Part shown: positions 18,953-28,763 of the stretch, in pieces
Numbering within the stretch: the stretch's first letter is position 1
Layout of the letters: every line of letters begins with the position of its first letter
Assembly (NCBI GenBank): GCA_947441055.1
Contig: CANETC010000001.1
Span: 1 to 50,083, forward strand
DNA: 50,083 nt
Source: Cytophagaceae bacterium
GTDB taxonomy: Bacteria; Bacteroidota; Bacteroidia; Cytophagales; Flexibacteraceae
Reading direction: 5' to 3'
The notes under the pieces: model-generated
Told to the model about the DNA's origin: nothing
Seen by the model: the letters and a program-made list of their open reading frames with translations, nothing else
Database searches by the model: none
Program-made: the position numbers and the translations under genes

Positions 18953-20437
18953 CTACACCAGCCTCCAGCCCCATTGCTTCTTTTCCTTGTTGTAGGATTT
19001 TATGGCATGGCCGGTGAGGTCGCTTCCATCGCTCAGCTGGTATTTCGCTACCAGTGCGGGGGGGATAAATGCATCTTCCAGAAATCCGAAGGTCTTGCCT
19101 TCCAGTATTTTTACCTGGCCGGCAACATACTTGTAAAAGCGGCTTTTGAATTCTTCATCCTGCACCTTTTCTGCTGTGTAGACCTGATGCATGCCTTCTT
19201 TGCTTCCACCCTGAAATCGCACGCTCAATACATCGCCCGGTTTAACATCCGGGAGCAAGCGGTCATATTTGAAGTAGCCAAGCCGGTTTTCTGATGCTAT
19301 AAAGTTGAGCATCTTCTTGTCCTTGTTAACGAACTCCACAAAAATCCGCTCTTCCGGCACATCGCTGTACAGAATAGCATCGGCCCGGAAAGCATGCTGT
19401 TTGTAAAACTTCAGGTTGGATGGCAAATCGCTTGCCTGCTGGTACCAATCTTCAAGAATCCAGCTAACCACTTCCGGTGGGATTTTAAAGCCCATATCGG
19501 AGCGAACCTCTACCAGCGTGTTGATTTCGGTTCTGGCCTCGTTGTAAAATCCTTTTTCCATCATTAACCCAGCCATTTTCTGGCGCAGGCTCACCAGCAT
19601 TTCTTTCGGGCTTTTACAAAGTAGGGCCCGGCAATAACAGGCAAGCACAGTATCCGGATCTTCGGAAAAAGCCTCGGCAATTACCTCCCAAACCCAGAAG
19701 TCATTTTTCTTTTTCCGGGCAAAAGGCAGCAAGGCCTCTAGCACATTATTTCTGTTTCCAAGCGCTAGTAATAGCTTTGCCTGAAAATAGGGTGGGTATT
19801 GATATTCTGGGTGATTCTCGACCACTTCTTCCAGCCGGGGTAAAAAGGCGGCCGCCTTACCCCGGTCAAATCCTGCTTGTCCGGGTAGCAATTGTTTGGC
19901 ATAGGCAATGTAGGCCTGCTCTACAAGCGCCATCATATCCTTGCCATTTTCTAATTTTTCCTTTTGCCAGTCTTCCGGCCGGAAATGGTTGAAATTCCAC
20001 CAGTCGGCAAAAGGTATGTAATGAGCGCTACCCTTGAGCAATTTATGAAATGCCTTGTAGAGAAAACTGTAGCCTTCTTCTCCTTTTGGGAAATGGAACG
20101 ATTTTATTGCCTCAAAAAGCTGAACGGTCTGCTGCTGCGGGAGTGGGTTAAGCTTTGCCATACTCATACCCATACGGCCGATTTGCCAAGCAACATTGCC
20201 AAACAGCAGTTTTTCATCTACTGTAAGTTCGAGTTCACGAATCGCATTCAGCCAAACAAGAAATTCGTTGAAAGCTCCGGCATGGGCATTGAGTTTCAGG
20301 TAATCGTAGTACACCCAGCTGATGTTGCGTTTCGGCCAGATGTTATCCGGTTCGGCAATACACTCCGCCTTTGCCATTTCAAGTGCGGCTTCCAGATTGC
20401 CTTGTTGACGTAGTTCTTTTATTTCTTTAGACGGCAT
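18953..20437 (-). CDS. hypothetical protein: N-terminal TPR-like helical repeats, C-terminal tandem OB/S1-like segments
   Basis: 494 aa. The helical-repeat N-terminal part includes QQGNLEAALEMAKAECIAEP. The C-terminal beta-rich segments are GDVLSVRFQGGSKEGMHQVYTAEKV and GQVKILEGKTFGFLEDAFIPPALV...GHAIKSYNK. The start overlaps the helicase stop by 11 nt. The domain calls are by eye only. Confidence 0.45.
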   Translation of the reverse strand: MPSKEIKELRQQGNLEAALEMAKAECIAEPDNIWPKRNISWVYYDYLKLNAHAGAFNEFLVWLNAIRELELTVDEKLLFGNVAWQIGRMGMSMAKLNPLPQQQTVQLFEAIKSFHFPKGEEGYSFLYKAFHKLLKGSAHYIPFADWWNFNHFRPEDWQKEKLENGKDMMALVEQAYIAYAKQLLPGQAGFDRGKAAAFLPRLEEVVENHPEYQYPPYFQAKLLLALGNRNNVLEALLPFARKKKNDFWVWEVIAEAFSEDPDTVLACYCRALLCKSPKEMLVSLRQKMAGLMMEKGFYNEARTEINTLVEVRSDMGFKIPPEVVSWILEDWYQQASDLPSNLKFYKQHAFRADAILYSDVPEERIFVEFVNKDKKMLNFIASENRLGYFKYDRLLPDVKPGDVLSVRFQGGSKEGMHQVYTAEKVQDEEFKSRFYKYVAGQVKILEGKTFGFLEDAFIPPALVAKYQLSDGSDLTGHAIKSYNKEKKQWGWRLV

Positions 20438-22616
20438 ATTCTTCTTGTTTCAGGGTTTGAATTGCTAACTGTATTTCGGACAGTAAAGCCGGGCTATTGG
20501 ATTTATTGGTCAGTGGCAGAACTCGGCCAAAAAAGCCATGCTGGTTGTATTCAAAATCGAGCATCGCACGCTGGCTGCCTTTGGTAAAAGTGTATCGTTC
20601 CCGGTAATCAAAGTGCTCTACGGCTTCAATGGCAATATCGCTTGAATCAAACAATGATTTTAAATCGTCGTATAAGTAGCGGGTAAAAGGAAATTTCTCT
20701 TCCTGCTCTACTTCAAAGGCCAATTTACTCAGAATGGTTTCCGGGCTATTCCGCTGAATGGTCAGTTTTGGGAGTTCTTGTAAAATACCGGCGATTTCGC
20801 TGTTGAATGCAGCATGGGGGGAGGCTCCCGGAATTAAAGCAAACTGTTTCTTAAATTCGTTTTGTCCATTTATCCAGGTTTTAAGGCTTGCCCGCTCCTG
20901 CTCCCGTTGAAAAGTGTACCAGATTTCATAGGCCTTTCTCTCCCAGGCCACAATTTCAATATACTTGTTTCGTACAGCATGCCGTACCTGAATGAAATGA
21001 TCCTGGAGTTGAGCAGGTTGTTCTGCAAGACCCATTTCGCTGAGTGCTTTTAGTATGTCGGGATCAATTGAGATGTCTTCAGGTTGAAGGACTTTACCGC
21101 TCAGTTCTTCCAAACCTTTTATCACCGGCATTTCCAAAAAGGATAAAGTGGAATAAGAGTTGAAAAAGGGTGGATTTAGAGCAAAATGTTTTTTTGAACT
21201 GCGGGTTACAGCCGTATAGGCCCAGCGATAAAACTCTTTATTGGTCTTACCGGCCTTTCGCTGCTTATCCGTGAGGTAGTTGAAGTTATCCGCATTTTCA
21301 TGATCCCAGATGCTGAATACCTGTTCCCACTCTCCACCCTGCGCTTTATGACAGGTTACAGCATAGCCATATTTTAACCGCAGGCAGTTAAAATACCCAT
21401 CATTCATTATGGCATCTTTAAACTCGGGCGTCTCCGATCTAAGCCCTGGATGCCTTTGCGTGAAATCCACATACAAGGCCTGGGTTTCTTCAGGAGTCAG
21501 GTAATTATCTCCGAAAAGGAAATTCTCCAGCATCAAGCCTTTTACCAACTTGTTGCTGCTTTCGCCATCAGGAAAAACAAGTTCCACATTGCGCCAGACC
21601 AAATTTACAGGGGCTTTCCCCTTCAGGTAAATTGTGCGTCGGATTGGGGAATCATCTGCAGAATTCACTACAGCAAATTCACCATTAAAAACACCCTTGC
21701 GGTAGTTATTGGCCCCAATAATCACAATTTCACCTTTCTGGGGCGGAAGCATCCGGCTGCCATATTTTCTTTCCCTGATCCTTAAATTGATATCAAGACA
21801 GGTTTTGTTTTTACTGGCAATAATGATTTTTGTGCTTTTCACACCTTCCCATATACTCAAAAAATCATCACCTGCGAGATTGAAAACATCCCGGTTGTTT
21901 GCCTTCAGATTAAAGTCGTTGAAATAGCCGGCCGAAATACTCTTTCGGATTTTAGTCGCCGCAAGCAGGATACCGCTTTCGCCCTCCTGGCGCAAAACTT
22001 CTTTTAGCTCCGCCTCCTGACAGGAAAGTTTAAATTTTTCCCTGAAATAATCGGGTTCAAAAGCTTTGGAACTGTTATCGCCAACGGGAGCAAGCTGGCA
22101 GGGATCTCCAACAAAAATAATCTTGGAATGAACATTGGGTTCCTTAACCCGAGTATATTCGATTAGGTCATCAAGCAAAAATCCAGATCCAAACCGAAAA
22201 AATTCGCCTTCACTTTTGGCATTCGAAACCATGGAAGCCTCATCCACAATAAAAACTTTGCCAGCCACATCAATGTTATTGCGCAAAGCATACGAATAGA
22301 AAAAGGAGTCTCCTTCATTAACTTCTACCAGGCGATCAAAGCAATAAATGCCTTTATGGATGGTTACAGCTTCCTGGCCTGTCTTTTCCCGAATTACTTT
22401 GGCGGCCCGCCCGGTTGGGGCCAGAAGAGCAAAATCTTTTGAAATGGAATTCAGGTATTGAACAAGTCCTTTGAGAATGGTGGTTTTACCACTACCGGCA
22501 TACCCTTTTAGCATAAACACAGGATCTGAACCTTGGAAAAAGCGCTCCAATTTGCCCAGGGCTTCTTCCTGCGAAGGGGTTAATTGCAGTTCCTCAAAAT
22601 GACTGAAAATACGCAT
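20427..22616 (-). CDS. SF1 (RecD/Dda/Pif1-like) helicase with ~260-aa unknown C-terminal extension
   Basis: Walker A GYAGSGKTT. Motif II FIVDEASMV. Motif III IFVGDPCQLAPV. Motifs V/VI YAVTCHKAQGGEW and YTAVTRS. The start lies 8 nt after the upstream ORF's stop. Confidence 0.8.
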   Translation of the reverse strand: MRIFSHFEELQLTPSQEEALGKLERFFQGSDPVFMLKGYAGSGKTTILKGLVQYLNSISKDFALLAPTGRAAKVIREKTGQEAVTIHKGIYCFDRLVEVNEGDSFFYSYALRNNIDVAGKVFIVDEASMVSNAKSEGEFFRFGSGFLLDDLIEYTRVKEPNVHSKIIFVGDPCQLAPVGDNSSKAFEPDYFREKFKLSCQEAELKEVLRQEGESGILLAATKIRKSISAGYFNDFNLKANNRDVFNLAGDDFLSIWEGVKSTKIIIASKNKTCLDINLRIRERKYGSRMLPPQKGEIVIIGANNYRKGVFNGEFAVVNSADDSPIRRTIYLKGKAPVNLVWRNVELVFPDGESSNKLVKGLMLENFLFGDNYLTPEETQALYVDFTQRHPGLRSETPEFKDAIMNDGYFNCLRLKYGYAVTCHKAQGGEWEQVFSIWDHENADNFNYLTDKQRKAGKTNKEFYRWAYTAVTRSSKKHFALNPPFFNSYSTLSFLEMPVIKGLEELSGKVLQPEDISIDPDILKALSEMGLAEQPAQLQDHFIQVRHAVRNKYIEIVAWERKAYEIWYTFQREQERASLKTWINGQNEFKKQFALIPGASPHAAFNSEIAGILQELPKLTIQRNSPETILSKLAFEVEQEEKFPFTRYLYDDLKSLFDSSDIAIEAVEHFDYRERYTFTKGSQRAMLDFEYNQHGFFGRVLPLTNKSNSPALLSEIQLAIQTLKQEEYAV

Positions 22617-22624
22617 AGCTCATT

Positions 22625-24511
22625 TTACTGAGGCAAAGGTGAAATGGAAGTGTGCGGTGGAGGTGCATAGGAAAAAATCTTAAGAAAAATCTTAAAGAAG
22701 AATAAAACATCCGTTGAATTAATTTTATTATCAGCCTTTACTCTACCTGTATAATGTGCAGCTACATTGCTTCTAAAATACCTAAGAGCAATTATCTTCT
22801 CAATATCTACTTTCGGCACAGAGTGGCGGAAATGCAAAACAGAAATTATTTTGACTAATGAGGTTGCATCGATACCACTTGAAAATGTGGTTTTTAACTC
22901 GCTCTTCTCAAAAGCATTAAATGACTTTATAGTTTCCGCTTCATTTTCGTTTTGAAATTCAATTCGACCTCTTACAAGTTCTAATTTAGTCAATATGTTC
23001 TTATTGTCGGATGATTGAGTAAAAATGTCAATTAATATTTCCTTATCAATTGAACAAACCTTACCGGAAGAGTTCTTAAAATCAAAAACCCCAACAAATG
23101 GCAAATCACAGTAATTCTCCAATACCTGAAAAGAAATTAAAAGACATTGATTTATTATTAATTCATTGGAAGATGATAGAGAAAGTAAATTAAAAATTTG
23201 GTCGAGAAATCCATTTTTTCCAAAAGTTAAATCAGCAAATTCTTTTCCATCAACCCGATTTGAAAAAATATTGACCCTTTTTAAGTTATAAATATTCCGA
23301 AAAAGTTCGGCTAAAAAAATATTATTTGCAGCTTCAGAAACCTGTTTAGTAAAATGCAGAAAAGTTGTCCGCGTTTGATTTCTGTTATTAAACGTTTCAG
23401 GCGACTCCTTTATTGTGAAGTATTTTACACCTTGCTCTAAACAATTTTGATAATTCCACACCTTATTTGATGCGGTTGAAACAATAATTTGAATTCCCGG
23501 ATTTTGTTTCTTAATAAACTTAATAATTTGAATTCCTGTTAAACTTTCAAATTCCTGCTCTATAAAATCATCATCATGTAATCTGAGATCAATGATAAAA
23601 ATATCAATTGGCTGACTTGAATTAATTACATCGAACACCCAATTTGTAATTTCAAATATCAATTGTTCTTTACTCTTATCCTTCTGAAAATTAATATATG
23701 GGACAATTGAAGCTTTTGATTTATCAAAAATATAGCTATAAAATTCAAACCATCCTTTATATGCTTCATCATCAATGAGCCCAAAATTTAATCCATCAAT
23801 ATTTTTAATTAAAAAATTGCCAGTATGCTTTCTTGAATTGAATATTTGTCGGTTTGCTTTTGCTTCTAAATGTTTAAAATGTAATGTTTTTAAATATTCT
23901 AAATCGAATAATTTTTTTCGAAAACTAGAATAAAAAAAATTACTTTCATCTTTCTCTAACATTGTAAAATATCTTGCAAGCGCCCATTCATTTGCTACAT
24001 TATGATGGTTTTGGTAATTCGCAGGCGGGTTAATAGTAATTGATTTATAAAAGGAAGATAAATCATAAAGCTTCTGTATTCGACCTTCAGAAAACATATT
24101 AAGAACATTATAGTAATCTTCTAAGGACTCTTTCATCAGATAGAGGCCATTTGTAAAAAGGATTGAAGGTTCCGGATAAATCAAGCCCAAATACTGAAAG
24201 CTTTCTTCGCAAATTATTATAATTGGAATTTTAGCTTTTTCACCTAAACCTTTAGACATCCTAATATGATAAGCTAATCTAAGTCCAAGATATTCTAAAT
24301 AGTTCTGGGAAAGTGCTGCCTTAATAAAAACAATATCGCTCCTTTCAATCTTTTTCTTAAGACCAACATCATGCTCTTCATCTAGGCTTTCAGTAATATA
24401 TAAATCTATATCCTTATCGAAATCAAGATCAAATCGGAATGATTCAGAAACTGGGAAAAAAATATCTTTATTAAATGAGGTGTTGTCAGAATGAACTAAT
24501 AACTTTTTCAT
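22625..24511 (-). CDS. uncharacterised 628-aa protein: N-terminal pseudo-receiver-like region, central CheY-like receiver domain, C-terminal HEPN-like Rx5H motif
   Basis: The REC pattern spans residues ~241-370 (23402-23791): FGLIDDE, IDIFIIDLRL (candidate Asp308), IQIIVSTAS, GVKYFTIKE. The C-terminus LRYFRSNVAAHYTG gives Rx5H at 22754-22774. About 30% GC. The start forms an ATGA overlap with the upstream ORF's stop. Confidence 0.5.
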   Translation of the reverse strand: MKKLLVHSDNTSFNKDIFFPVSESFRFDLDFDKDIDLYITESLDEEHDVGLKKKIERSDIVFIKAALSQNYLEYLGLRLAYHIRMSKGLGEKAKIPIIIICEESFQYLGLIYPEPSILFTNGLYLMKESLEDYYNVLNMFSEGRIQKLYDLSSFYKSITINPPANYQNHHNVANEWALARYFTMLEKDESNFFYSSFRKKLFDLEYLKTLHFKHLEAKANRQIFNSRKHTGNFLIKNIDGLNFGLIDDEAYKGWFEFYSYIFDKSKASIVPYINFQKDKSKEQLIFEITNWVFDVINSSQPIDIFIIDLRLHDDDFIEQEFESLTGIQIIKFIKKQNPGIQIIVSTASNKVWNYQNCLEQGVKYFTIKESPETFNNRNQTRTTFLHFTKQVSEAANNIFLAELFRNIYNLKRVNIFSNRVDGKEFADLTFGKNGFLDQIFNLLSLSSSNELIINQCLLISFQVLENYCDLPFVGVFDFKNSSGKVCSIDKEILIDIFTQSSDNKNILTKLELVRGRIEFQNENEAETIKSFNAFEKSELKTTFSSGIDATSLVKIISVLHFRHSVPKVDIEKIIALRYFRSNVAAHYTGRVKADNKINSTDVLFFFKIFLKIFSYAPPPHTSISPLPQ

Positions 24512-25191
24512 GCTATTTCAAGTATTAATCTATCTAGAATTTGCTTAATCTGCTTAATCTCGTCAATAGAGACAAGATTAAACTCATTTCCTGAAAGAGT
24601 TTTTTCTGTTTTCTCGTTCAATAAATCGCTTTTAATAACTTCATTAATTTTCAGATCTCTTACCCTTTTAATAATTTCACTTTCATCTATTTGCGCATTT
24701 GGAATTTGCGTTTTGATTACTTGCTTGTTTATAGCGACGGCTAAATAATTCCGTAGGTTAAGAAGCAGACTCAATTTCCACTTTCTCCCGAATTGAAGTA
24801 CTAGTAAATTGATATTACTATTTTCCTCAAATTTCTCTATAAACAATTTAAGATTTTCAGAATAAAAATCTCTTGAATTAATATGAAGGAAGGGAAATTC
24901 TACATCCTTAATTACACTTGATGTAATTCCACCAGAAAAGAAAATTAATGGTTTTCTTTTTGATCTACAATAATCCTTTAATGTATCTCTAACTTCAGTT
25001 GAAAATGCAGATCGGTGAGAGGCAATACATTCAAATTGATCGAGTATACTGGTGTCATTAATCTTTAAGGAGTTAACTAGGGTGTCAAATTCAGAACCGG
25101 TAATTATTGAAACTGATTTATAACTTTTCAAATCAAAATCAGCATACTGTTCAAGTCGGCCTATTCTATCTTCAATTATTGAAATTTTCAT
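24508..25191 (-). CDS. uncharacterised 227-aa protein (weak flavodoxin/receiver-like pattern)
   Basis: MKISIIEDR... and KRKPLIFFSGG weakly resemble the beta1 and beta4 strands of a CheY-like fold. ATGA overlaps occur at both ends (25188-25191 and 24508-24511). About 30% GC. No family was recognised. Confidence 0.45.
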   Translation of the reverse strand: MKISIIEDRIGRLEQYADFDLKSYKSVSIITGSEFDTLVNSLKINDTSILDQFECIASHRSAFSTEVRDTLKDYCRSKRKPLIFFSGGITSSVIKDVEFPFLHINSRDFYSENLKLFIEKFEENSNINLLVLQFGRKWKLSLLLNLRNYLAVAINKQVIKTQIPNAQIDESEIIKRVRDLKINEVIKSDLLNEKTEKTLSGNEFNLVSIDEIKQIKQILDRLILEIA

Positions 25192-27365
25192 TTATAAAAA
25201 GTTAAGATGTGCTTGAAACCATCTGCCGAAACAATTTTTTCAAAGGCTGGAGTCTTTTCATCCGAAACCAGGTAGTTAATCCGGTATGCACCTTCAGAAA
25301 ATTCAGACTCAATACTCCAATCGCAGAGATTTTTTAATTTGTCTTTTATTGTACTAAAGTCTCCTCTCTTTAGGTTGAGCTTGTCATCATGAATCGACAA
25401 TCCCTTCTTTATTGAATTCTGATGTAAAATCTCAAGAACCATTTTCTCAGAATTACTTACAGTTATTGCATATTCTACATCGGGATGTTGCGGATACTTT
25501 TGGATTCCTTCAAAAATTAAATCAAGAGCTTTACTGAGCCATTGGATATCAGCATAGAATGTTTTGTTTTCCAAATTGGAAATCTTTGGAGGGGAAAAAC
25601 TGATTAAGTAACTATCATGTTTTTGAAGTATTAGGTTTAGCAATGCAGAGTTTTCATCCCTAACTTCAATTTCATTTTTGAACACATCAATTATGTGCTT
25701 AAATTTTTGAAGTGTTTTGCCGGACCGCTGAATCTGAAACTTTTCAGGTAAAATAAAATCTTCTGGATTCAATGAAGTATCATTTTTACAGGCCGCAATT
25801 AACTCTGGTGAGCTCCATCCAAAATAAATGCGCTTTTTTGGATTAATATCTCCCCATCCAGTATTTTCTATCTTACTATTGAAAATAAAATTATAAATTT
25901 TCCCATTAAGATTTGGACTTAACTCCTTAAGCCTAAAGCTAAAAGAATTATATCTCTTTTTTGCTTGATCAATAAAATCATTCAAATCTTTAAATAAATT
26001 TGAATCCCTGCCGGCATCCCAACTATGAGTTGTATATTTCAATGGACTATTATTAATTGAGAAATTTTTTAATAAGTTAACAAGTTCCTTGGGGCAATGA
26101 AAAATTGGAATTATTCCGATTTCTATTTGTTCAATATTTTTTTCTTGAGGCCTCTTTTCAAAGGCATCAAAAATACTGTCTAAATCTATTCCGCTAAAGT
26201 CTTCTTCTAAGTCAAAATCGTTGGATATGCCATCCATTGATTTTGCTTTATTTGAGTTTACAGTAGAAATATCAATCAGTCTTTTTGATAATTTATTAAA
26301 TACAGAGCTACTTGGACTCTTCACCATCTTCAAAAACTCCAGCTTGCCAGCCAGTACATTTTCCATTGCAGGAGCGCCTTTTTTTACATGGCCTTTATCA
26401 TCCAGGTATTGCCTGGAAAAGATGGCAGATGCTTTTTCATATCCATACCGTTCCCAATAATACAGCCACATACGAAGTTGTTTGATGTAGCGTTTTGGCA
26501 CATTGGGTTTTTCGTGCACAAGCAGCCCGGTTACCTCTTTCCGGTAGCCGTCTTTCTGGAGGCGGGTCTTGCTCTCCTTGATGTAAAATCCCTGTTCTAC
26601 TATTATTCGCCTGAGTTCCGTTAGAAAATCGCCTTCTGCATGGTAAACACTGTGCATGGAACTGAAGGTTATGTCATCTGCATAGCGGCTGTATGTTAAA
26701 CCAAATCTTTTGGCTACCCCGCTAAGAAGATGATCTAAACGCTGGCAAACCATATTTGTAATTACAGGGGATGTAGGGGCGCCCTGCGGCAGGACTTTTC
26801 GTTTCACTTTTTCCCATTCGCCGTTTGCATTCGGGCGCTCCACTTCCATTTCTGTACAACATAGCCCTGCAATAACGGAGGCAAGTTTTATTCTTTCCCC
26901 AACCAGGTTAAACGGTTTCAGTTGGAGGCATTTCCAAACTCGTGCCTGTTCAATGGTAGGAAAAAAATCTTTTAAATCTATGTTGTATACATAATACTTG
27001 CCAACATGAGGCAGGGCATTATCTACAATGGATTTATCTCGAACAAATCCCGTTGCAGCCTTGTGTGGTTCAAATACACACTGCAATATAAATGCCATTG
27101 TACGCTGTATGGCTTTTAACCCTTTCACCGGTGCATGTATGCTTCGTTCGCCACCCGACTTTTTCTGGATTTTAAATTCGGCATATCGCTTTCCTCCCAG
27201 ATTGGCATTTGCATACCAGGTAAGCTGTTTTATCTGAAAAGCAACCGCCTTTTCACCGAAAATCAGAGGTTTTACTTCATTCAGCAACTGAAGCAAATCT
27301 TCCCGGGTCTGCATTTTTGAGAATGCATCCTTGATTTGGTCGATATTTTCCTGTTGCGGTTTCAT
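25188..27365 (-). CDS. retron-type reverse transcriptase fused to a ~375-aa C-terminal region of unknown function
   Basis: RT residues ~60-345 carry retron hallmarks: KSIVDNALPH (NAxxH), DLKDFFPTI, LPQGAPTSPVITN, YSRYADDITFSS (YADD at 26673-26684), RKEVTGLLV (VTG at 26526-26534). No recognised family after about residue 350. Confidence 0.85.
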   Translation of the reverse strand: MKPQQENIDQIKDAFSKMQTREDLLQLLNEVKPLIFGEKAVAFQIKQLTWYANANLGGKRYAEFKIQKKSGGERSIHAPVKGLKAIQRTMAFILQCVFEPHKAATGFVRDKSIVDNALPHVGKYYVYNIDLKDFFPTIEQARVWKCLQLKPFNLVGERIKLASVIAGLCCTEMEVERPNANGEWEKVKRKVLPQGAPTSPVITNMVCQRLDHLLSGVAKRFGLTYSRYADDITFSSMHSVYHAEGDFLTELRRIIVEQGFYIKESKTRLQKDGYRKEVTGLLVHEKPNVPKRYIKQLRMWLYYWERYGYEKASAIFSRQYLDDKGHVKKGAPAMENVLAGKLEFLKMVKSPSSSVFNKLSKRLIDISTVNSNKAKSMDGISNDFDLEEDFSGIDLDSIFDAFEKRPQEKNIEQIEIGIIPIFHCPKELVNLLKNFSINNSPLKYTTHSWDAGRDSNLFKDLNDFIDQAKKRYNSFSFRLKELSPNLNGKIYNFIFNSKIENTGWGDINPKKRIYFGWSSPELIAACKNDTSLNPEDFILPEKFQIQRSGKTLQKFKHIIDVFKNEIEVRDENSALLNLILQKHDSYLISFSPPKISNLENKTFYADIQWLSKALDLIFEGIQKYPQHPDVEYAITVSNSEKMVLEILHQNSIKKGLSIHDDKLNLKRGDFSTIKDKLKNLCDWSIESEFSEGAYRINYLVSDEKTPAFEKIVSADGFKHILTFYK

Positions 27366-27377
27366 TATCTTTTAAAA

Positions 27378-27615
27378 ATGTTCCTTGATGCCTGCTGCGT
27401 ATTCTTTGTTTATGAATCATGAAAAATTAATTCATAATAATATAAGAATATTTCATAATAATATAAGATCTTCAGTTTTCACTTACTGATGAACTATTAA
27501 TTACCAGGAGACATTCATTCCGGATTACTCCGGAACACCAGCCGATTTGAAATTGCCTTGCGGCAACCTCCAGCTGGCACGAGTCAATATCTTGCAGCAG
27601 GCATTCAATGAACAT
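27378..27615 (-). ncRNA. candidate retron-like msr/msd non-coding RNA bounded by an a1/a2-type inverted repeat
   Basis: The arms are 27594-27615 (GCAGCAGGCATTCAATGAACAT, + strand) and 27378-27398 (ATGTTCCTTGATGCCTGCTGC). They pair over 11 + 3 + 6 bp with one bulge and one mismatch. The arm nearest the RT lies 12 nt from its ATG. The 195-nt interior contains nested hairpins at 27538-27577, 27518-27535 and 27410-27437. This is a prediction only. Confidence 0.5.
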
Positions 27616-27671
27616 GGTGCAAAGTAATCAGGCAATAGTGCAATGTAGCTGCACAGTTGAAAAATAATCTA

Positions 27672-27679
27672 TAAATTTG
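27672..27679 (+). promoter_or_regulatory. candidate -7 box (TAAATTTG) for the WYL regulator gene
   Basis: Matches TAnnTTTG 67 nt upstream of ATG 27747. Confidence 0.3.
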
Positions 27680-27693
27680 TTCTGAGAAATTTC

Positions 27694-27705
27694 GGAATGC
27701 ATTCC
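27694..27705. promoter_or_regulatory. perfect 12-bp palindrome GGAATGCATTCC between the candidate -7 box and the WYL gene start; possible operator
   Basis: Read directly from the sequence. Its position downstream of the putative promoter fits an autoregulatory site. Confidence 0.3.
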
Positions 27706-27746
27706 ATGCTGTCTTTTCAGCTTACATAAAGAGTTTTACACAATTA

Positions 27747-28763
27747 ATGGCAACCAATAAGAACGCTTTAATCCGATACAAGGTACTGGATGCCTGCTTC
27801 CGCAATACGGGCAGAAAATTCTTCTTTCAGGATTTGATGGATGAAATGGAAAAGGTGTTGAATGAAATTGACCCCGGTAGCAGTGGAATAAGTCGCCGTC
27901 AGCTGTTTGACGACATTGCCTTTATGGAAAGCGGCGAAGGCTGGAGCATTGACCTTGCTCGCCACAGGGATGTCAAGAAGGTTTATTACCGGTATGCCGA
28001 CCCTGATTTTTCAATCAACAATATGCCATTGAGTGAGATTGAAATTCAGCAACTGAAAACGGCCTTGGAAATTCTTACCCAATTTAAAGGCATGCCCCAG
28101 TTCGACTGGATTCATGAAATGGTGCCAAAACTTCAACAGGGCCTTTCTAGCCCGGAAAGTAATGCTTCAGCCATCATTGAGTTTGACAGCAACCAATATC
28201 TGCGTGGCATTGAGTTTCTGGGACAGATTTATATTTCCATTTTCTATAAAAAGGTTCTGTCTATCGGTTATCAGCCATTTGGTACAAGTCAGCCCTTTGA
28301 GATTGTGATTCACCCATACTACCTTAAGCAGTATAATAACCGTTGGTTTCTATTTGGCTACAATCCCGATAAAAGCAAATACGACTGGAATCTTGCCCTC
28401 GACCGTATTTCCTCTATCAGAGAATTGAATACGCGGTATCAGCCTAATTTATCCATCGACTGGCAGGAGTATTTTGAAGATATGATTGGGGTTACCAAGT
28501 CAACTGAAGCCAGAGTTGAAAAAGTCGTCTTGCACTTCAAGGGTGGCACCGGATTTTACATAGAAACGAAGCCCTTGCATGGGTCTCAAAAATCCAGGTG
28601 GCTTGATGAGGACACGCTGGAAGTAAGTATGGAAGTTGTCATCAATTATGAGCTCGAACGGCTTATTCTTTCTTATTCCGACACGGTTACCGTTTTGGAA
28701 CCAAGCAGTTTGTCTGATTTAATCCGCAAGAGGCTGGAGAATTCTCTTGGCACATACTTATAA
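27747..28763 (+). CDS. WYL-domain transcriptional regulator (N-terminal wHTH, central WYL, C-terminal WCX-like)
   Basis: N-terminus NALIRYKVLDACFRN...ISRRQLFDDI looks like a wHTH. HPYYLKQYNNRWFLFGY is the WYL-type motif. It is transcribed divergently from the RT operon. Confidence 0.8.
   Translation: MATNKNALIRYKVLDACFRNTGRKFFFQDLMDEMEKVLNEIDPGSSGISRRQLFDDIAFMESGEGWSIDLARHRDVKKVYYRYADPDFSINNMPLSEIEIQQLKTALEILTQFKGMPQFDWIHEMVPKLQQGLSSPESNASAIIEFDSNQYLRGIEFLGQIYISIFYKKVLSIGYQPFGTSQPFEIVIHPYYLKQYNNRWFLFGYNPDKSKYDWNLALDRISSIRELNTRYQPNLSIDWQEYFEDMIGVTKSTEARVEKVVLHFKGGTGFYIETKPLHGSQKSRWLDEDTLEVSMEVVINYELERLILSYSDTVTVLEPSSLSDLIRKRLENSLGTYL

Follow-up and report, generated by a model that had tools for sequence, protein, structure and literature searches.

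A receiver protein with a putative HEPN ribonuclease output encoded behind a retron-type reverse transcriptase in Bacteroidota

Known retron defences couple a reverse transcriptase (RT) and multicopy single-stranded DNA (msDNA) directly to a toxin. Here we describe a gene in a 50,083-nucleotide stretch of DNA from a Cytophagaceae bacterium (contig CANETC010000001.1, positions 1 to 50,083; 'the window' throughout) whose 628-residue product, referred to below as the target, joins an inactive receiver (iREC), a CheY-like receiver (REC) with a complete phospho-acceptor set and a C-terminal HEPN-like domain. Further upstream in the same translationally coupled series of genes lies a retron-type RT with a fused HisKin-conflict domain, and a relay made of a kinase-like domain and a receiver appears to stand between the RT and the effector. 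On balance, we favour the reading that the target serves an RT-kinase defence system as its effector and is switched through the acceptor aspartate D308.

If this reading is true, the step from sensing to killing would be separable and open to the classic two-component tools. Ribonuclease (RNase) activity would join the known response-regulator outputs, and a function would be given to ~250 residues that lie outside all domain libraries. The family is spread across Bacteroidota, in lakes, guts and marine fish-associated genera, and is already catalogued both in Pfam and in one retron survey (PMC13712802).

Architecture of the 628-residue protein

An earlier reading of the letters alone (the sequence-only reading) had placed a 628-residue protein at 22625-24511 and had seen in it a canonical-looking receiver, a degenerate copy of that receiver at the N-terminus and an R-x5-H motif near the C-terminus. 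The open reading frame (ORF) is confirmed, on the minus strand, every string quoted from it (FGLIDDE, IFIIDLRL, IIVSTAS, YFTIKE, LLVHSD, DIVFIKAAL, KIPIIIICEE and LRYFRSNVAAHYTG) is found in the target, and the positions given for D308 and for R580 to H586 are correct (Table 1), the latter motif lying 42 residues before the C-terminal end. Library scans returned an iREC match, followed in the protein by a receiver fold and by a helical domain without a Pfam family; neither NCBIfam nor PADLOC has a model for the target.

A homologue search among 5.8 billion proteins yielded 403 relatives, mostly of ~600-625 residues and chiefly from Bacteroidota and metagenomes. A separate profile search with a hidden Markov model (HMM) among 1.84 billion representatives yielded 66 proteins, nearly all of the same ~600-residue architecture or shorter pieces of it, the exceptions being one stand-alone protein of 221 residues and one repetitive protein of 1240 residues; because nearly all of these matches share the target architecture or are pieces of it, they provide no bridge to annotated HEPN proteins. 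Conservation was counted in an alignment of 144 full-length relatives pooled from both searches, 23-64% identical to the query, and residue numbers are those of the target unless another protein is named. In their source records, relatives carry names such as 'response regulator transcription factor' or 'CheY-like chemotaxis protein'.

Residues 241-371 form a CheY-like receiver fold with a complete phospho-acceptor set. D248, D308, A347, S348 and K368 are found in all 144 relatives, position 247 carries D in 135 relatives and E in the other 9, and position 346 is T in 133 and S in 11, so that the acidic pair, acceptor Asp, Ser/Thr and Lys proposed for residues ~241-370 by the sequence-only reading are kept in essentially every relative. 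Its placing of the Ser/Thr in IIVSTAS also holds, with the correction that the exact equivalent of CheY Thr87-Ala88 is T346-A347. The target itself scores 21.7 bits against Pfam Response_reg (PF00072; residues 301-370, E 2.4e-4), below the gathering score of 30.2, and relatives exceed that cut-off (P0156 at 42.7, P0116 at 39.4 and P0118 at 35.4 bits). An AlphaFold2 model of the whole protein, built from a 38-sequence alignment, reached a predicted local distance difference test (pLDDT) score of 86.3 and a predicted template-modelling (TM) score (pTM) of 0.83, and Foldseek searches of the Protein Data Bank (PDB) matched its receiver to PorX, PleD, ArlR, CpxR and CheY-type receivers (E 2e-5 to 3e-3, target TM-score up to 0.75).

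The degenerate N-terminal receiver corresponds to a significant match to the Pfam iREC family (PF22563, E 4e-15), with a profile score of 56.2 bits against a cut-off of 27. Its acceptor position, K64 in the target, is K in 83, P in 40 and S in 10 of the 144 relatives, and the acidic-pair positions are not conserved; with K, P or S in the acceptor position, this module is truly dead. The helical linker that follows contains one of the best conserved stretches of the whole protein, H170-S-I-A-N174-E175-W176-x3-R180 (the HHSIANEW motif; 23972-24004, minus strand), in which H170 and N174 are invariant (144/144 each), W176 is kept in 142 and R180 in 138 relatives.

No family in Pfam or the other libraries scanned covers residues 372-628. 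The C-terminal domain was approached through its motif, its predicted fold and more permissive profile searches. The sequence-only reading had itself cautioned that a single short R-x5-H motif is weak evidence, and rightly, as the protein contains two Rx4-6H motifs against 1.4 in shuffled sequences (p 0.42). The check it proposed on conservation gave a clear answer: H586 is present in 144/144 relatives, R580 in 140/144 and N582 in 133/144, and R-[NSDH]-x3-4-H occurs within the last 90 residues of all 144 relatives compared with 2.8% of shuffles. Variant C-termini that are otherwise only 10-25% identical keep RNTKAAH, RNGFIH, RNDLIH, RNDIAH or RNNKIAH. Because it is conserved across relatives in this way, the Rx4-6H motif is real rather than a product of chance. 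R381-x4-H386, considered as a second HEPN motif, was rejected: R381 is not conserved, and the conserved arginine nearby is R377.

Modelled alone, the C-terminal domain gave a pLDDT of 85.5. AlphaFold places helices at 377-396, 399-412, 423-430, 435-445, 450-468, 548-562, 567-584 and 599-613; E465, kept in 142/144 relatives, lies in helix 450-468, and helix 567-584 ends in R580-S-N, two residues before H586, which opens the next loop. In the published description of HEPN domains (PMC3710099), helix 2 bears an acidic residue, helices 2 and 3 are separated by an insert and helix 3 terminates in the motif, and the prediction for the target has the E465 helix, a large insert, the R-x5-H helix and a last helix in the same order. 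E465, R580 and H586 may form one putative active site. The insert, a five-stranded beta structure, is the least conserved segment of the target. It gave weak, non-significant Foldseek matches to coat proteins of single-stranded RNA phages (Qbeta 5vly, E 1.9; a coat protein in BFVD, E 1.0). The protein ends in a 15-residue Pro-rich tail (SYAPPPHTSISPLPQ; residues 614-628, 22628-22672, minus strand) with pLDDT <50 that is absent in most relatives.

Since HMMER penalises an insert of 70-90 residues, the insert was cut out, joining residues 424-470 to 545-628, and the resulting sequences of 34 diverse members (set A3) were scanned singly against Pfam. This gave nine member-to-family matches on five HEPN families, all below gathering scores: HEPN_RiboL-PSP (3 members, best E 1.3e-5, 25.6 against 28.4 bits), HEPN_MAE_28990 (1 member, E 8e-5, 23.4 against 26.8 bits), DUF4145 (2 members, best E 0.0025), HEPN_AbiU2 (2 members, best E 0.012, 15.5 against 26.8 bits) and HEPN_Apea (1 member, E 0.016, 16.1 against 24.4 bits). 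P0171, the best HEPN scorer, is tied to the core family by a match (E 3.9e-10) that spans almost the entire domain. The A3 profile found a single match in the PDB, 3jrt (E 0.75), an integron-associated HEPN (PMC3710099) whose LRNHCVAH aligned to the motif; in a word-index search the insert-deleted profile found fragments only. From the motif, the topology and these sub-threshold matches, we judge that the C-terminal domain probably belongs to HEPN. None of the three outcomes that the sequence-only reading had named beforehand as speaking against it (a predicted structure lacking the four-helix fold, an R and H not conserved among homologues, a receiver-like segment without its conserved Asp, Thr and Lys) occurred, the fold being judged from the order of predicted elements, and its HEPN interpretation is supported, short of proof.

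Partner genes and their order across relatives

The start of the target gene overlaps the stop of a 227-residue ORF by 4 nt, and that ORF in turn overlaps the stop of the gene for the 725-residue RT protein (Table 1). This setting, which the sequence-only reading did not take in, strengthens its idea of an effector under signal control. The RT resembles retron RTs both in PADLOC, where it matches the models of types XI, XII and XIII (E 1e-97 to 2e-83), and in the PDB, where it matches those of Ec67 and Ec86. The HisKin-conflict domain of the same protein (PF22561) is identified at E 9e-63 with 213 bits, and among relatives RT and HisKin-conflict are either fused or encoded by separate genes. 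In a seven-sequence alignment of this domain, numbered by the 725-residue protein, H423, P425, K443, H447 and D450 are invariant, and the domain is probably a Bergerat-fold relative of the histidine kinases.

No match to the 227-residue protein was found in Pfam, the PDB or NCBIfam. A seven-sequence alignment shows an invariant H59 (CIASHRS) and an invariant F85-S86 (LIFFSGG). The protein has a receiver-like look, with a hydrophobic strand and acidic residues at its N-terminus (MKISIIEDR) and His59 at the place of a receiver's acceptor Asp. It may be a further pseudo-receiver, or else an intermediate in phosphotransfer. Upstream of the RT lies a structured leader, a candidate for the non-coding RNA of the retron, with a minimum free energy of -113.7 kcal/mol (z -6.8 against shuffles). 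It matched no Rfam family; a conserved RNA has been reported in this retron lineage (PMC13712802).

Table 1. Position of the target, its parts and the neighbouring genes in the window
Feature	Position	Strand	Residues	Basis or remark
iREC-REC-HEPN-like protein gene (P0001)	22625..24511	-	628 aa	ORF list and translation
iREC (inactive receiver)	24122..24511	-	1-130	Pfam PF22563 at 41-125
Helical linker	23792..24121	-	131-240	invariant motif inside
Receiver (REC) domain	23399..23791	-	241-371	D247, D248, D308 (23588-23590), T346, K368
HEPN-like domain	22673..23398	-	372-613	AlphaFold models, pLDDT 86 and 85.5
Five-stranded beta insert	22889..23092	-	474-541 (68 residues)	between core helices 2 and 3, both models
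Candidate HEPN catalytic motif R580-S-N-V-A-A-H586	22754..22774	-	580-586	end of third core helix
227-aa partner protein	24508..25191	-	227 aa	no Pfam family; 4-nt overlap with each neighbour
Retron-type RT fused to HisKin-conflict	25188..27365	-	725 aa; RT ~43-390, HisKin-conflict 422-724 (25194-26102)	Pfam RVT_1, PF22561
Structured leader, candidate retron non-coding RNA	27366..27746 (381 nt)	-		upstream of RT
SF1 (RecD/Pif1-like) helicase with C-terminal TBP-TOTE	20427..22616	-		PADLOC PDC-M16A; start 8 nt past target stop
DUF7017 with two S1/CSD-TOTE OB domains	18953..20437	-		PADLOC PDC-M16B, Pfam
WYL-WCX regulator	27747..28763	+		Pfam, PADLOC; divergent across leader

The two genes downstream of the target are well supported, with 98.5 bits for TBP-TOTE, 71 for S1CSD-TOTE-1, 79 for S1CSD-TOTE-2 and 159 for DUF7017. 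Neighbourhoods were compared for nine relatives across the family; L001-L006 form three near-identical pairs, and L012 holds the target-gene homologue only. The order RT, HisKin-conflict, a protein of ~200-236 residues and an iREC-REC-X protein is found in the window and in eight loci whose upstream genes can be read, drawn from L001-L010; the truncated L011 is compatible with this order. In the window, and likewise in six of seven further loci for which downstream sequence exists, a helicase lies 3' of the target gene, lacking its TBP domain in L003, and a Pfam-confirmed DUF7017/S1CSD-TOTE gene stands behind it in L001, L002, L005, L008 and L009, being cut off in L007. The WYL gene is upstream in every locus that reaches that far; apart from L008, in which it shares the strand of the other genes, it is divergent. 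Between the target homologue and the helicase, several relatives have a DUF3127 gene or a spacer, compared with an 8-nt gap in the window.

The most compact case is L010, the locus of P0168, which has WYL, RT, HisKin-conflict, a 198-residue protein and iREC-REC-HEPN, with no helicase/TOTE pair and with a tyrosine integrase next to it, behind the iREC-REC-HEPN gene, a position that suggests mobility. Because L010 has no helicase and the pair is common elsewhere, the four-gene set constitutes the core and the TOTE pair a frequent accessory. The surroundings of the relatives also include type I restriction-modification, pAgo, McrBC and GmrSD genes, among them a Piwi (pAgo) operon with a type I specificity subunit in L005/L006 (1-5458) and a DNA methylase with McrBC in L009 (14960-18964), and the neighbourhood is a defence island.

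A block at 22600-26300, covering the kinase domain, the 227-residue gene and the target, has 27-33% GC compared with 42-48% in the flanks (RT core, helicase, TPR/OB), which suggests that the signalling and effector cassette was acquired separately. Among the relatives, P0005 and P0117 share 98% identity in residues 1-176 and 13-38% beyond; across the mosaic comparisons of P0005 with P0117, P0110 and P0120 the figures are 90-98% over 1-176 and 13-40% beyond, each C-terminus keeping RN..(.)H. The recombination junction falls directly after the linker motif H170-R180, and its position right behind the invariant HHSIANEW argues that REC+HEPN cassettes are exchanged as units. Such swapping between 98%-identical N-termini is what would be expected of an immune effector.

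In one freshwater metatranscriptome, two identical short contigs were found, of which one lies on the target and the other on the RT, a weak sign of operon transcription. The window itself stems from a lake-water metagenome.

A proposed receiver switch and its alternatives

In the mechanism that we propose, phage infection would be sensed by the RT together with its non-coding RNA or DNA product, and the histidine-kinase-like domain fused to the RT or encoded beside it would change state and switch the receiver at D308. Switching of the receiver would then relieve autoinhibition or drive dimerisation, as it does in other response regulators, allowing two R-x5-H motifs together with E465 to assemble into an active HEPN RNase site. 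HEPN RNase activity is metal-independent. Cleavage of RNA would arrest the infected cell (abortive infection), with the helicase-TBP and TPR/OB (TOTE) proteins acting as accessory nucleic-acid-handling partners outside the core. The architecture of domains, the conserved residues, the receiver fold and the order and coupling of the genes are observed; the HEPN fold, the RNase activity, the trigger and the abortive outcome are what we infer, and transfer of phosphate from the kinase-like domain to the receiver seems to us about evenly balanced between true and false. A fuller version is tentative and somewhat doubtful: a non-canonical kinase fused to the retron-type RT would pass the infection signal by phosphorelay to the receiver-HEPN RNase, perhaps by way of the His-bearing 227-residue protein and the H170 motif, with the REC+HEPN cassette exchanged between strains at a fixed junction. 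If true, this would be a first both among retrons, in being wired through two-component signalling, and among response regulators, in having an RNase as output.

Several results weigh against the proposal, and they bear on both ends of the relay. No experiment on any family member was found in the literature. The gating model is least secure at the kinase-like domain, on which its main rival is also founded: the seven-sequence alignment has neither a conserved N-box Asn nor a DxGxG (the G1 motif), and the sole hint from the PDB is the catalytic domain of YycG at E 0.32, across the N-box region. If HisKin-conflict is a kinase it is an atypical one on this sequence, its kinase activity is doubtful, and it may not be a kinase at all. 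The rival that follows keeps the RNase output and changes the switch, making HisKin-conflict a pseudokinase or a GHKL-type ATPase and letting the receiver be turned by a ligand, by a nucleotide or through direct contact between it and the RT complex. Precedent comes from a proposal by Aravind's group that the kinase-less receivers of conflict systems are nucleotide-responsive switches (PMC8195603), and the acceptor Asp is missing from two more receiver-like modules of the system, iREC and the 227-residue protein. We nevertheless consider this unlikely, as the full acceptor set is invariant or conservatively replaced in 144 relatives, which would be difficult to account for if there were neither phosphoryl chemistry nor at least Mg binding, as the invariant H423 and H447 could carry phosphate, and as the kinase-like domain co-occurs with the receiver in every locus.

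At the other end of the proposed relay, the C-terminal domain has resisted assignment by direct comparison. A Foldseek search with its model found nothing significant in the PDB (best E 1.6) or BFVD (0.37); among 23 weak PDB matches, three Csm6 chains (6tug) ranked first by probability and TM-score (E 2.1-3.6, TM-score 0.29). The profile of the native domain matched no PDB sequence, and scans of native C-terminal sequences against Pfam gave noise and one Csm6_HEPN match at E 0.1. The HEPN matches in Pfam lie below cut-off and appeared only after removal of the insert, and the target's own insert-deleted mini-domain matched no Pfam family.

Given that no nuclease was matched significantly by structure or by profile, the domain might instead be a HEPN-like or novel helical module that binds RNA or protein, in which case the target would be an adaptor or regulator, perhaps of the helicase-TBP and TPR/OB proteins, and the effector would be elsewhere. 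The helicase that follows in the window and in six of seven informative loci fits such a role, non-catalytic HEPN domains are known (PMC3710099), and TOTE systems are said to carry effectors of their own, often RNase H (PMC12458937). In non-catalytic HEPNs, however, one of R and H is usually lost, whereas this family keeps both of them and the helix-2 acid in almost all relatives; L010 is a core without a helicase or any other candidate effector, and the conserved core contains no other enzyme with a toxic activity. A non-nuclease adaptor is, on these grounds, decidedly improbable. To take the target for a housekeeping response regulator or a transcription factor of the ordinary kind, as the database names of its relatives would have it, is scarcely credible: such names follow from the receiver domain alone, the gene keeps strict linkage to a retron-type RT in defence islands, and no DNA-binding domain was detected in any library scanned, for which reason the transcription-factor reading was rejected.

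Relation to known systems

The closest published counterpart of the proposed RT-kinase-receiver effector system is a 2026 retron survey (Toro, mSystems; PMC13712802), which places such RTs in a Bacteroidota-only lineage termed 'TXI_C2like' and reports WYL, iREC and HisKin-conflict as enriched neighbours, with iREC and HisKin-conflict accessory clusters of 12 loci each. The Pfam families PF22563 and PF22561 and this lineage cover the same proteins as those described here, with the same Bacteroidota lineage and WYL neighbour, and the RT of the window is closest to the type XI, XII and XIII retron models. The survey describes no live receiver, HEPN output, signalling mechanism or functional reading, and the words receiver, kinase and HEPN are absent from it. 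No published description of a receiver-HEPN protein was found in the literature.

Established retron effectors (the protease of type XI, TIR of type XII and Toprim of type I-C) share with the present system a retron-type RT, a structured upstream RNA, a toxic effector, here a proposed one, and a defence-island setting. They differ in that their RT and effector are joined by direct fusion or complex formation, whereas here a kinase-like and receiver relay appears to stand between them.

Among response regulators with enzymatic outputs, PorX, PleD and CheB have the receiver fold and the complete acceptor site in common with the target; PleD also has a tandem of pseudo-receiver and receiver, and PleD and PorX are the top structural matches. 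In contrast to all three, the output of the target is a putative RNase, and its partner is a kinase-like domain that is carried on an RT and lacks the canonical ATP-binding motifs. An RNase output of any response regulator was not found described in the literature searched.

The target is likewise comparable to Csm6/Csx1 with CARF, RNase L and the KEN domain of Ire1, in which a regulatory domain lies N-terminal to a HEPN domain with R-x4-6-H; as in these, a dimeric composite site would be expected from the model. Their sensor is a cyclic-oligoadenylate-binding or kinase-like domain, whereas that of the target is a phospho-acceptor receiver. The HEPN-like domain of the target also differs in its 68-residue beta insert and in matching no known HEPN family significantly. 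An RNA-binding role of this insert is conceivable.

TOTE stands for TPR, OB, TBP and Effector (Aravind, Iyer and Burroughs 2022, as cited in PMC12458937). The pair known to PADLOC as PDC-M16, helicase-TBP-TOTE and DUF7017-S1CSD-TOTE, lies directly downstream of the target and is present in most relatives, L010 lacking the pair and L003 the TBP. The HEPN-like protein may occupy the effector slot of TOTE.

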